64,000 nt of DNA, taken from NCBI RefSeq assembly GCF_001677475.2, contig NZ_CP015229.1; one strand, written 5' to 3'. A program made the position numbers. Every line of letters begins with the position of its first letter. Positions within the stretch are counted from its first letter, which is position 1. This stretch comes from Escherichia coli (GTDB lineage: Bacteria > Pseudomonadota > Gammaproteobacteria > Enterobacterales > Enterobacteriaceae). This document shows positions 27,001-33,000 of this stretch, one piece after another.

Positions 27001-30000
27001 CAAATTCTTGCTGTTACTATGGATGTTCGGGCATAAATATACCTGCCAATAAGGTGAAGCATCCGCGATTTTAGTCGAGTCTGCTCACCCATAGGGCGTT
27101 AAATATTATTTTTTTCATTTCGAACATAAGTATATTTCATAACACAGGCGAGTGCTGATTTAAAAACCGGCCATATTTCAATGTACGTTATTAACGCCCT
27201 CAAAAATATATTTTTCTACTTACGCACCGTAGGACGTCCTCTATAGCTAACGCAGCGACCTGCATCAAGTAACTTTTGAATTCTGTCGATCCTTTGCTTT
27301 GAGAGCAAAATAATCTGAAATTGCCATGAAAATAAAAAATTCATTATCATAGAGAATAGCAATCCACCAATGTCCGGAGCTAACGCCAACCAGGTGCTGA
27401 AGATCCTGCTGTCACGCACTGTCATCGTATCCACTAAGATAATGAGATTAACAAATGTAGTTACAGACAAATAATAACAGAATAGCATGGCGCATAAACA
27501 CAGGAGGCCACTCCCCCATCGATTTCTCGCGAATTTATACGCATCGGAATATCCGACAAAAATCTTGCCTCCGGATTCATTAAAACTGAATATATCGAGG
27601 ATCTTTCGGCCATAAGAAATTAGCTGAATAATTTCGAAAGCATTATCGTAACAAAGTAATTTTTTTAAAACCGTAGCCGGTATTGGCCTGCTGCTGTGTA
27701 TCCTTGATATACAGGCCTGAACAACATACGGATTTGGATTGTTATTAGATAATTCTTTTGAAAGTGCATCAATAATACCTGTTTTGTTTTTAGCGCTACC
27801 GTGAATAAAATTAACCAGTAATGCCAGGACAGAAACAAGGATGGGTAAAAAAGAAACAGCATATTTGATCATGATTATAAAATCCATTGAAGATAAGAAA
27901 AACTAACACCCCAAAATTATTCAAGTATAATCAGGCGATATCCCCGAACATAACCAGTGAAGTACATTGTGTAGATTAAGACATTATGTTACGTCAGGAT
28001 TTAACTGGCAATGCTAGTCGCACCTCATTTTTGCGATGGTATAACGGGAATAGCGCTTTATCTATGAAAATTTTGAAGTTATGAGACATAGAATCTTATT
28101 TTGATAGTGACTGGCACAATAAAATGAAAGACGTTAAACCGAAACAGATAATCTGTGTCGAGAGTGGGCTATTATTCAACGGTAATAACACCACCTTCAG
28201 AAAAGGTGGTGTTTGGGGAGAGATTGAATCAGCTCCCCTTAAGCCTGAATCAAACGTTTAAACAAAAGCTGCTGCATATCCTGCCTGTGAGCCAGGATAG
28301 CATGCACGGTCACACCGTTGTCTTCCACTGAATAAAGTACACGATATCCATCAGCGCTGTTGAACTCACGGTACCTAGCGCGTCCACTAACGACATTGAC
28401 GCAACTCCCGCACCCATGCCCCGCCCTCGTCCATCTTTATCCGTGGACACCAAGGCCTGAGCGGGCATTCGGATACGAAAACCACTTTACCTGCACTGCA
28501 GGTGCCCCGTATTTCCGTCACCCTCAGGTTGGACCCTGTAAATAATTCTGTGTAACTGCCACCGTATTAAAGGTGATCGCGCAGGCGGTCACCGAACACA
28601 ATAATAAAACGGCTCATTGCCAGCCGCCAGTTCTGGATAGGCATACTCCATTTTTTCGACGCATCCTTGATCGCCAGATAAATAACCTTGCGTACCGAGT
28701 CGTCAGTCGGAAACACCTTGCGTTTTTTGATGGCTGCACGGATAACGCTGTTCAGCGACTCGATGGCATTCGTGGTGTAAATTGCCTTGCGAATATCAGC
28801 CGGGTAACCGAAGAACGTATTGAGGTTTTCCCAATGCGCACGCCAGCTTTTGCTGATTTGCGGATATTTATCGTCCCAGACTTTCACGAACGCATCGAGC
28901 ACCATCAGCGCGGCCTCTTCGGTCAGGGCCTGAAACTGTTTTCAGGCCGCTGGTGACGGCTTTGTAGTCCTTCCAGGACACGTATTTCAGGCTGTTACGC
29001 ACCATACGGATGATGCACAGCTGGATATGGGTCTGAGGGTAGACGCTGTTGATTGCATCCGGGAAGCCCTTAAGGCCGTCCACACAGGCTATCAGGATGT
29101 CCTGCAGGCCCCGTTTTTTTCAGCTCCGTCAGTACAGCGCCTTCGTTTTCGGCCAGCCTCATACCCAGTAATTCTTTCTGACCTTGGGTGTTGATGCCCA
29201 GCGCAAGGAACACTGCTTTATTCATCACGCTGCCATTCTGACGGACTTTTACGACAATGCAGTCCATATTAACAATGGGATACAACGCATCCAATTGCCG
29301 GTTTTGCCACTCGTTGACCGGCTCTTTGACGGCGTCGGTGACTTTAGATATCAGCGTGGGCGATACATCGGCATCGTACATCACTTTAAAGGTGGCGACG
29401 ATTTCGCGCGTGCTCATGCCTTTGGCATACAGGGATAAAATCTGGCTGTCCATCTGCGTGATAGTGTTTTTGACGAGTAGCCATTGCGGGTGTTCGAGCC
29501 TGTTTTGGGGCATTTTTCTCATGCCCGAGATGGTCAGTCAGCTCCGCATTGAGCGCTGTTTCGACGGTTAACTTCGTCAGCATACAGGAAAACTGATTGA
29601 GGTCGGCTACGGTTTTAAGACCTTTGGCCAGTTCAGCCGCAAGGGCCCTGAGTTTCTTGTCGTCCATAATTTGCCTGTCTCCATTGTTGGAGTTAACATA
29701 TCAAAAACAGGCAATTACACAATTTTAATTACAGGCTCCGTCATTCTGCCAGCATGATAGAAATTAATAATAAACCCCATGCTCCAGGCGTGTGATCAAT
29801 TTTATGATCTCGTAAGCCCCGGTTTCGGATGCCATTAGTTCTGATGGTTCTTTCCAGTTCAGTACCATATTCGGCGACTTTAACCATTTGCAGGCTCCCT
29901 CTTTGTCACCTTCGAATAGTTCTACCGCCCTGTCAATAATGCGGATACAACGCACCAGCCGTTCGCTGTGTGTGGCACTGAATCGAGTTCTCAGGCTGCG

Positions 30001-33000
30001 GCTGAAAGCTTTTGGCGGAATACCGGACATTTTGCATAAGTCTGCTTGCGATATCTTCGCCCAATCAATGATTAGTTGAGCAACCCTGCCATCCAGGCCT
30101 TCTCTAATCTGCCCAAGAAGAGACATACCAGTCGAGTGTTTTAACCCAGCTACTTGCCATAGGTGTGGCGACCTGGGCTGTGATGTTGACAGTTTAAATA
30201 TTTTCATCATTACCCGCCTTCCGATAATTCAGGCTTTTCAAAATAAATATTATATTAAAAGATCAGTCATATATACGACATGCTGATATCACTGGCACTG
30301 ATTCTAATATCCAGTATTTAAACAGTTTTTCTTAAGACGAAGGTACTGTTTACCCGGAACCTGCAGAACAATTAATGAAAACTACTGGTAGAATTAAAAT
30401 GTAAGGGCAATTTTTATTATCCAACTAATAGTTTTTTTGACTAAAAGGTTGATTGGCGGCCTTATCCCCTTCTGAAAGCACTATCAAAGGGAGCAATACG
30501 ATGGTTTATTGTTGCTCCTGATATGTCTGACGGGATCCTATGGCACAGGAAAGAGATCCATGTCAAAAAACATCGAATGAACTGACCACATCAAGCGGAG
30601 GATAGCATTCTAACCATATGATTACATTAACCTTCTACTCCTCCGCACACCAGAAATTATGCCACATTTCCACATCTTAATTTCGGCCGACTTACCACCA
30701 TTGGTGTGTGATTGCTACGTAGTATCCAGTATACCCCACAGACTTAGCATGCGTTGCAATTTAAACTGGTTCCATGAATCTCCAGACAGTTGGTATCACT
30801 TACCTGAGTGATAGCCTTAACACTCGTTTTTAAACCAGCAGCTAGAACCCGATATGATTGTGTCGAGGGTCGCATGTCAGCATGATGTGCTGCCAGTCAG
30901 CTGTTCCTGCGGCGTTAACTGAATCAGGAAGACAGCCTCACTGCCGTTGCCGCTGGTGAACTCGTTGCGTCCGCGTAGGGGCAGTCATCGACGATGAAGA
31001 AAATCGGAGAGCTAAAGCTCCTGCCGGGCAAGAAAAACATGGGAAACTGGTTACTGAAAAGGTCGTTGAATATGGCTGGCAAAAAAAATAGATTATGCAC
31101 ATGCCCTTATTACCCCGGAACGGCGAATTAGACTTATCAGGCTTTGTCACGAGATCTCACATGCACAACTGCATACCATGGCCCATCCTTCGAAGAACTA
31201 GTCGGAACGTCTGTTAAACCTTCGGCAATTCAGTTTTAAAATTGATAGCAGTTAATCCCACTAAATGGTTTACCCGTTTAATTATGTCAGCAAAAACAAA
31301 AAGTTACTTTTCATGGGTATGGATAAAGTCTTAAATGCGATGTTTTACATTAAAAAGCGGACACCTCCCATCGATAAATTGTCTGCAATCTCCACAAACC
31401 CTGCTTTTCAACTTAAGAAAATGAACATTAAAAGAAAAATTTGGAAGTCCCACACTTTCGTAACTCGCATACACAAATTCATTTTTTATAAAATTGTTAA
31501 AATCACAAAAATCCACCTCACTTACCATTCTAATGGTGGCTGACAAATATGCTCTTTGCATTATCTTTACATCAATTACACGTTTCAGACCTGAAGAAGA
31601 TTTATTTTTAAAAATACTACACAGAAAATTAACCAACTCATCCTTATTTTCCAGAATCCACGTTCTGACTCTGCCATCAGAACATGGCAATAGATATACC
31701 GGAGTCTGAAATGGGTTAAAAACATCAACTACAAGTGAATAACACCCCGAAGGATTTAACCCACTCACCATTAACTCACAGAGTCCTTTAACCGCGCCAG
31801 AATAATTATCAAAGCAAACTTCGTATAAACTTTGATTGTGATGGCAACATCTTGATTCAAACTGCCATCTATGTCGAAGATAGCCAACACCTTTGATACG
31901 AATATCTTCCAGAATACAACTGTGGCAATAGCGAATTCGTGAGATGTTTACCACAGGATATGTATTTATAATATTAAATCCTTTATTGTGAGCATCTTCC
32001 ATAGCATCAAAATAGCTGTAAACTCCATATGGAGAGTAAATCATTCTGGAAGTGAGTATAAATCCATTTACTGTGGTAAGAATATCATATAAGTCCTGAG
32101 TTCTGTGTAGCTTATACACATTAATCAACTCCGGTCGTGGGTAAGCATCATATCTTAATGCACCATGCGCTGAGATAATATTCCTGTAATTTTGTATATT
32201 ATATATAATCTGAGTACGTAGAAGAAAACTGTGCCACAATTCATTTTCATATATCATATCAACCTCATTCAACTACTTAGATTTACTCATATTAATCAAA
32301 GCCATAGTAACTGGAAGCTTATCTCTGTTTTTTAATAACCAGCCATGTCCCCCCAGTACAGAATCAAGTCTTGACAGTGACAGTGAGCACTGCCCCTGAG
32401 CTAAAAAATTTTTTATTAATGATAATGAAAACTTATCCCTTTCATCCCAATTGACCCTTTTAACATTACAGCGCCGTGATTCCTTTGGTAAATAAAAATC
32501 AAGCCATTGGCTTTCAAATCTGTTTAGCCAGAAAAAACTTGCATAACAATTCGCCCTGACTACTTTTCGAGTCACAGGACCAGTGAGGCCATGCATGAAC
32601 CGCAGGATTTTTTGTTTATGACGTCGTCTTAAAGAGTCTCTTTTACATTTTTTACGCCATGAACATAATCCATAAAATGAAGAAATCACCGATGAAACAC
32701 TCCCTTCCGATAAGGAGTTTTTCTTTGCTATTGATGCTAAACTAAACCCTCTCACAGCCATGGATTTAATAAGGAACTCAGTTAATATGTTTATTTTAAT
32801 GCTACACTTATAATTCTTTACATACTTTTTATGGATTACTCCTTTAATAAAACATCTACTCTTGTTAAGTTCCTTAGCAAGAGAATTAATACTGTTATGT
32901 TTTTCACTCAGGAGGCAAAACTGGGCTGTATCATCATCAAAAGCGATGCTCTTTGATTTTTTATGGATATCGGCATGTACTGGCCATGTTATTCTTAACA

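Follow-up and report, generated by a model that had tools for sequence, protein, structure and literature searches.

Here we describe a block of gene debris from Escherichia coli that surrounds an orphan antitoxin gene, that is, a gene of the Xre/ParS/MbcA type (DUF2384) that has lost its RES toxin partner. The block lies in a stretch of 64,000 nucleotides from contig NZ_CP015229.1 (RefSeq assembly GCF_001677475.2), hereafter termed the window, which is E. coli sequence and is 99.7% identical to six complete genomes across the parts they have in common. The features of the block, read along its coding strand and given with protein lengths in amino acids (aa), are the following:

30402-30763, minus strand: conserved element of about 360 bp, 200 bp upstream of the antitoxin gene, consisting of a decayed gene and its former upstream region
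about 30410-30595, minus strand: decayed phd/yefM-type antitoxin gene, interrupted in frame by two stops
29764-30210, minus strand: Xre/ParS/MbcA-type (DUF2384) antitoxin gene, 148 aa, or 147 aa when counted from the second Met as in homologues
29739-29767, minus strand: stub of a RES toxin gene, about nine codons, delimited by alignment with intact loci
28532-29738, minus strand: dead ISEc39/IS1414-like element of the IS256 family of insertion sequences (IS), 1207 bp against about 1315 bp when intact
28987-29085, minus strand: truncated astA/EAST1-like open reading frame (ORF) of 32 aa, inside the IS relic
28416-28531, no strand: 116-bp stretch between the IS end and the parE remnant, without assignment
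28239-28415, minus strand: 3′ end left over from a ParE/RelE-family toxin gene, comprising codons 55-113 of ~111 plus the stop codon (the last 59), with one codon deleted
28188-28213, minus strand: hairpin AACACCACCTT..AAGGTGGTGTT, just downstream of the parE stop

The antitoxin gene is the sole undamaged gene of the block. Its product matches both PF20432 (Xre-like-HTH, E 2.5e-8) and PF09722 (Xre_MbcA_ParS_C, the former DUF2384, E 3.1e-12) above cut-off, and the nearest solved structure is 8GUG_B (E 7.7e-14). Over its full length it is 67-73% identical to antitoxins paired with RES toxins, those of the Klebsiella plasmid type included, and 71-75% identical to a group of homologues that have no toxin. 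It departs from the family consensus at 18 positions, against 18-20 in the other toxin-less homologues, and an excess of private substitutions was rejected on this count. Scans for promoters and terminators gave no more sites than shuffled sequence. The protein is probably still a DNA-binding repressor and may perhaps bind a partner protein as well.

In the intact relatives at 67-73% identity, the TGA stop of the antitoxin gene overlaps the TTG start of a gene for a 156-aa RES-domain protein, and an even sample of full-length plasmid homologues held such an overlapping second gene in 57 of 59 cases, 52 of them explicitly annotated as RES. The window keeps the two-domain build of these antitoxins and has no RES gene with an overlapping start directly downstream: the stub reads TTAATT-TCTATCATGCTGGCAGAATGACG, in which the TTG start has mutated to TTA and one base has been deleted, and then the IS end follows. 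Three RES toxins used as tblastn queries against the whole 64 kb gave a best E of 0.57, with none detectable. Judged from its sequence, the locus cannot work as a toxin-antitoxin (TA) system, being neither an addiction nor an abortive-infection module, because only about nine start-less codons of RES remain.

The IS that abuts the stub is equally dead. Its transposase survives as four ORF fragments within 28567-29667 with similarity to PF00872 (Transposase_mut; E 6e-35, 8e-10, 1e-20), and no single intact ORF is left, since the domain is split over these fragments by five indels. Aligned end to end, the relic is 84.8% identical to ISEc39 of E. coli LF82 and 87.5% identical to a second IS256-family copy; relative to these references it shows a 2-nt deletion, a 1-nt insertion and deletions of 15, 91 and 1 nt, and these indels lie at positions 28932, 29114, 29136, 29455 and 29502. 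Both terminal inverted repeats are present and align with the references (GACCCTGTAA... and ...TTACAGGCTC). The IS was compared with these two copies, and its likeness to IS1414 rests on the EAST1-like ORF, which points to the IS1414 group; this ORF matches PF08090 (Enterotoxin_HS1) at E 1.1e-4 and 22.5 bits, under the cut-off of 25, over model positions 5-21 of 36. The astA copy within the dead IS is non-functional, and decayed IS1414 copies carrying astA fragments have been reported as common in E. coli (PMC12585946). The sequences that flank the relic, read on the minus strand, differ (GAATGACG vs. CAACCTGA), and no 8-bp target-site duplication was found around it, whereas both reference copies in E. 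coli are framed by perfect 8-bp duplications. Since both IS ends are there and the duplication is not, the relic does not represent a simple insertion; we infer that formerly separate sequences were brought together by a deletion next to the IS or by recombination of two IS copies.

On the far side of the IS, positions 28242-28415 align to residues 55-113 of RelE/ParE-family proteins of 106-113 aa at 80% identity (P0121), with an E of 4.7e-20 against 5.8 billion proteins. Position 28239 is the stop codon of this frame, which ends in ...YRVLYSVEDNGVTVHAILAHRQDMQQLLFKRLIQA followed by the stop, and the hairpin at 28188-28213 is the native 3′ flank of parE, held in common with the intact locus L021. 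The remnant has no start codon, and an in-frame stop stands just upstream. Intact ParE relatives have a gene for a 77-aa Phd/YefM protein directly upstream, which is absent at this locus; neither a full-length ParE with a start codon nor a Phd/YefM or ParD gene directly upstream was found. The intervening 28416-28531 gave no protein-level match to ParE N-termini, and reading it as a decayed 5′ half of parE was rejected, the local DNA alignment scoring no better than shuffles.

The initial annotation of this stretch had proposed a DUF2384-type antitoxin at 29764..30210, a frameshifted IS256-family element behind it where a RES toxin would be expected, and a RelE/ParE-like C-terminal remnant without start codon beyond the IS. 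All three identifications held, as the homology matches for antitoxin, IS and parE remnant are far beyond chance. Of the profile searches that it had suggested, the one for DUF2384 succeeded and the one for ParE_toxin (PF05016) fell below cut-off (18.5 vs. 23 bits); the similarity of the remnant to ParE rests on the protein alignment above. The two findings that it had named as fatal to its reading, a remnant with no significant RelE/ParE similarity and an intact partner toxin elsewhere in the island, did not materialize. It had further suggested an alignment to related islands with an intact TA locus. None was found: all 13 related loci compared carry the same debris.

Upstream of the antitoxin, the element at 30402-30763 is 64-67% identical to the equivalent position in two loci with toxin-less homologues (L033 and L008). 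A nhmmer profile of it unexpectedly matched the phd genes of ParE loci, and tblastn with the Phd partners of these loci gave 52 bits in L033 and 30 bits in the window. The relic is an open 83-aa ORF in L033, where it has no Pfam match; in L008 a single stop interrupts it, and in the window there are two. Two other readings were rejected: that of a structured RNA, with no Rfam match and a positive (penalizing) covariation term from RNAalifold on both strands, and that of a live ORF, as the mismatches show no 3-nt codon periodicity. The relic is 35-43% identical to the Phd partners of ParE relatives, against 80% for the parE remnant on the same reference locus. It is too divergent to be the partner of the parE remnant and probably comes from a different module, so that the block would hold the remains of three TA modules. 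For the same reason (35% vs. 80% identity, and no intervening parE 5′ part) the relic and the remnant were rejected as one operon split by Xre-RES.

The debris is an old, fixed scar, given that the block is 99.8-100% identical across related E. coli contigs and a Salmonella IncHI1A plasmid. This identity holds in all 13 related loci (L001, L007, L022-L032), without indel variation save for three gaps in L024, and the exact antitoxin protein is recorded on 298 contigs. The next nearest relative outside these loci, 75% identical, is toxin-less too. An 80-aa allele of the antitoxin, cut at 29968 by an IS3-family element and lacking the whole toxin-binding domain, was recorded on 560+320 contigs and in six complete genomes, that is, on more contigs than the intact allele. 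DNA resembling the antitoxin gene occurs in 48 of 5426 complete E. coli genomes, most of the matches being on plasmids of laboratory transconjugants. Among complete E. coli genomes none spans the whole block, and six have only the part from 29968 rightwards. The Salmonella locus (L041; plasmid NZ_CP044968.1 of Salmonella 1,4,[5],12:i:-, 35906-60343) is a composite island on a conjugative plasmid, in the order tns genes, antitoxin debris, an intact cyclic-oligonucleotide-based antiphage signalling system (CBASS), an IS3-family transposase, then EAL, HTH and tibA genes, and this plasmid location explains the contigs labelled Salmonella that carry the identical sequence. In another E. coli locus (L026, GCA_053209775.1) the equivalent of 30417-38315, comprising the tns genes and the phd relic, is replaced by an IS with GGCTTTGTTGAATAAATC-type ends, and the antitoxin, the debris and the CBASS are left stranded beside yhiN.

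The debris block is cargo of a Tn7-like transposon of the Tn6230 family, about 19 kb long, at yhiN. The genes tnsA, tnsB, tnsC and tnsD and a TniQ-like gene occupy 31331-38278, adjoining yhiN (Pfam, RefSeq annotation), and arrays of TnsB sites place the right end at ~38350-38420 and the left end, present in two copies, at ~6288-6400 and ~19087-19200; the element thus shows the tnsABCD/TniQ genes, the repeat arrays at both ends and the neighbouring yhiN that define the family. Its cargo comprises a type II CBASS, a 223-aa ORF and the TA debris. The yhiN-yhiM interval has been described as a hotspot for Tn6230-family transposons in E. coli (PMC10121019), and a cargo survey found Tn7-like cargo to be enriched in TA modules and insertion sequences (PMC8649781). 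Sibling Tn6230-family elements hold unrelated cargo at the position of the debris.

We consider it probable that the block is no working TA locus but the fixed scar of nested mobile-element remains in Tn6230-family cargo, with the antitoxin as a dispensable passenger. The minus-strand order of phd/yefM relic, antitoxin, RES stub, dead IS, 116 bases and parE 3′ half with its putative terminator hairpin would have arisen when an IS-associated deletion, or recombination between IS copies, deleted the remainder of RES on one side and the 5′ part of phd-parE on the other. The antitoxin itself would derive from a small toxin-less lineage carried by Tn7-like transposons beside their tns operon. That it is dispensable in this island and has no addiction function is most likely, because no toxin is left to neutralize and the truncated allele is common.

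The toxin-less lineage was recognized among 119 homologues, where the window protein groups with clusters P0002, P0026, P0010 and P0076 at 93% bootstrap; rare residues that define the clade include Q44 and C58. All clade members with known context (L008, L033-36, L037 and L040) are without RES and keep only a stub of 11-20 codons, and in all of them the antitoxin gene and the TniQ-like gene that ends a Tn7-like tns operon face each other tail to tail, while the cargo beyond differs between lineages. The identities of antitoxin, TnsD and TniQ-like protein track together, at 88/85/86% between L008 and L033 and at 76/74/62% between L008 and L037, and L008 and L033 have an identical RES truncation junction. 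Between these two, the antitoxin shows a ratio of non-synonymous to synonymous substitution rates (dN/dS) of 0.20, with 18 of 42 differences being non-synonymous against 77% expected if neutral (p 1.4e-6); on this substitution pattern, the clade antitoxin is shown to be under purifying selection in the L008/L033 family of Tn7-like elements. Compared with RES-paired relatives, the constraint on the helix-turn-helix (HTH) domain is about unchanged, whereas the corresponding ratio of differences per site (pN/pS) is 3-4 times higher in the toxin-binding domain, where it amounts to 0.15-0.34 in the toxin-less clade. Between the window and L037, codons 31-88 (the HTH) show a pS of 0.22 against 0.54-0.63 in the flanks and a pN/pS of 0.75, on small counts; this pattern could reflect a recombination tract or relaxed constraint. 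In L033 (1465-4363) and L037 (959-4556) the antitoxin adjoins defence cargo, which is a ubiquitin-like Bub system (Multi_ubiq/E2, JAB-ThiF, BubE) with a UvrD-type helicase in one lineage and a HORMA/TRIP13-type CBASS with BrxR in another.

The window transposon belongs to a different Tn7-like family: its TnsD is 29-31% identical to that of the clade members, and its antitoxin module is inverted and stands 1.1 kb from the tns operon, from which we take the module to have been acquired horizontally. The loss of RES may predate the IS, one ancient loss being more parsimonious than two. That said, several points weigh against our account. In the tree, the window copy branches as sister to the rest of the toxin-less homologues and is not nested within them, so that the loss of RES here could stem from the IS event. 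The clade rests on five sequence clusters, and scans of genomes and of metagenome contigs with clade-specific peptide patterns returned nothing, or only known sequences. Purifying selection in the other transposon family is no proof of function in that of the window. Conversely, the antitoxin ORF is intact while its neighbours have decayed, which could weakly argue for selection here too; at the indel density of the IS relic, ~1.8 indels would be expected in 444 nt, with a chance of finding none of ~0.16.

The IS insertion might itself have destroyed a working RES-Xre module, the antitoxin simply not having decayed yet. The IS directly abuts the RES stub, and with a sister rather than nested window copy two independent losses are possible. 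Yet the IS is ancient (85-87% identical to its nearest relatives, with five indels) and the antitoxin ORF beside it is intact; the start codon and frame of the stub are already gone within 29 nt; the phd relic and the clade substitutions are common to homologues whose toxin-loss junction differs; and one loss is the simpler history. We regard this explanation as doubtful. The initial annotation was right that the IS256-family element stands where the RES gene is expected, while the IS need not be what orphaned the antitoxin.

On a bolder reading of the clade, Tn7-like transposons have domesticated a RES-less Xre/ParS branch, which they keep as a stable accessory gene where tns operon and cargo meet, either as a regulator exerting control of the zygotic-induction type or as a portable immunity to RES toxins, and the window carries not debris but a functional, horizontally transferred copy. 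This composite proposal can be held only tentatively. If it were true, the long survival without a toxin and the co-divergence with the transposon core would offer a clean natural case on what orphan antitoxins do, and the antitoxin would become a candidate regulator for a Tn7-like family that shuttles defence systems. Of its two possible functions, the regulatory one supposes that the toxin-less protein was co-opted to control the transposon (tns or cargo), possibly giving a burst of expression in a new host, in the manner of the Xre-family regulators of type I-F3 CRISPR-associated Tn7-like elements. In one family of Tn7-like elements the gene marks the border between core and cargo, its divergence parallels that of TnsD and of the TniQ-like protein, and it evolves under purifying selection, with different cargo beyond it in each lineage; its HTH is about as constrained as in RES-paired relatives, and there is also precedent in two independent co-options of Xre proteins by I-F3 elements (bioRxiv 10.1101/2020.07.02.184150). 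Against this, no operator or shared motif was identified, operators not having been searched for, and the window module stands in a different family (TnsD 29-31%), in opposite orientation and 1.1 kb from tns. Sibling Tn6230-family elements do without the module, and the HTH looks relaxed on the window branch, if the pN/pS of 0.75 against L037 with its small counts is a guide. By analogy with the I-F3 case a regulatory role is possible for the clade; as the explanation of the locus we think it unlikely.

That orphan antitoxins may act in trans is an established idea. For this antitoxin, which the initial annotation had seen as a possible protector against RES toxins encoded elsewhere, retention as an anti-addiction or immunity factor against incoming RES-Xre modules (for discussion of orphan antitoxins in trans see PMC10790755) is somewhat disfavoured and, as the explanation of the locus, quite improbable: although its C-terminal toxin-binding domain is complete and conserved, this domain is still constrained in the toxin-less clade (pN/pS 0.15-0.34) and closely related pairs of RES and Xre genes are frequent on plasmids of Klebsiella, Citrobacter and Pantoea that can enter E. 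coli, it is also the domain that relaxed most after toxin loss (3-4 times in pN/pS, with the HTH about unchanged), 67-73% identity to RES-paired antitoxins makes cross-neutralization uncertain, the family is rare in E. coli (the 48 of 5426 genomes above), and the intact allele is outnumbered by the one from which the toxin-binding domain is missing entirely.

Taking the block as a fixed scar with a passenger antitoxin, annotation should label the antitoxin as an orphan of the Xre/ParS type and what is left of RES as a stub, treat both the IS256-family element, with its astA-like fragment, and parE as pseudogenes, and mark phd as a relic; the locus should be counted neither as a TA system nor as an active IS. 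The debris also marks a widespread Tn6230-family island with CBASS beside the tib adhesin locus, present on E. coli chromosomes and on the Salmonella IncHI1A plasmid. Overall it is ordinary debris, and the toxin-less, Tn7-linked antitoxin lineage is modestly interesting.

The remaining cargo of the element lies to the left of the block:

27216-27887, minus strand: ORF for a 223-aa protein whose hydrophobic segments look membrane-like; it lies between the parE remnant and cap3
26417-26890: Cap3/JAB gene of the type II CBASS operon (operon 19402-26890)
22097-23932: Cap2 E1/E2 gene of the same operon
20955-22100: CD-NTase gene of the same operon
19402-20949: SAVED-endonuclease effector gene of the same operon

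The 223-aa ORF is kept in every island copy and gave no match in Pfam and PADLOC searches; it was considered as the counterpart of the DUF4145 gene that follows parE in L018, and rejected as the two show no similarity on comparison. An IS66-family element at 23983-26372 separates cap2 from cap3 in the window, and the two genes are adjacent and unbroken on the Salmonella plasmid, as they are in most E. coli contigs. The window has two near-identical Tn7-like left ends, both on the plus strand, and a single right end, which suggests a tandem arrangement of an older, tns-less remnant (~6.3-19.1 kb, with tibC/tibA, LuxR and EAL genes) beside the complete 19-kb element. A 350-aa ORF at 4902-5954 has the size of yhiM and is a candidate for it. 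In two Tn6230-family siblings (L005 11053-11352 and L006 4199-4498), a 99-aa Xre-family protein of the HTH_3 type stands at the position of the TA debris, accompanied by an OLD-type AAA/TOPRIM ATPase and then sil/pco genes; an HTH gene right after the TniQ-like gene and on the same strand thus recurs in unrelated cargo.

Among known systems, the element as a whole resembles the Tn6230 family in its tnsABCD and TniQ-like genes by yhiN, its TnsB arrays and a cargo rich in defence genes, IS and TA modules, and differs in that siblings hold sil/pco, the HTH protein and the OLD-type ATPase where the window has TA debris. Its IS is of the length class of ISEc39/IS1414 and has their inverted repeats, a transposase of the Mutator type and, putatively, an EAST1-like ORF in another frame, yet at 85-87% identity and with five indels it retains neither an intact transposase nor a target-site duplication, and its EAST1-like ORF is truncated and under the Pfam cut-off. 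The parE remnant has 80% identity with the toxin of Phd/YefM-ParE systems over the C-terminal half of the latter and retains the native 3′ hairpin, while the 5′ 54 codons and the neighbouring antitoxin gene are missing here.

For the antitoxin, the closest comparison is with the RES-Xre type II TA systems, such as ParST, MbcTA, the RES-Xre pair of Pseudomonas putida and KnaAT of the Klebsiella virulence plasmid (PMC6436930; PMC10896132). Like the antitoxins of these systems, it combines an Xre-like HTH with a C-terminal toxin-binding domain, and it is 67-73% identical to partners of genes for RES NAD+ phosphorylases; the window locus differs in having no toxin, with ~9 RES codons left and the start codon gone. 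The Xre regulators associated with I-F3 CRISPR elements are likewise small HTH proteins conserved beside Tn7-like transposition genes. Our antitoxin departs from them both in domain family, with PF20432 and PF09722 in place of a C-protein-like HTH_3 (PF01381) that has operator motifs at its own and at target promoters, and in position, as the gene of the toxin-less clade follows the TniQ-like gene and does not lie between tnsABC and tniQ-cas. The orphan antitoxins described from enterobacteria (PMC10790755; PMC7192599) are, like ours, toxin-less antitoxin genes within mobile elements; here, by contrast, a whole small clade linked to Tn7-like transposons is toxin-less and under purifying selection, and is not just a one-off product of decay.

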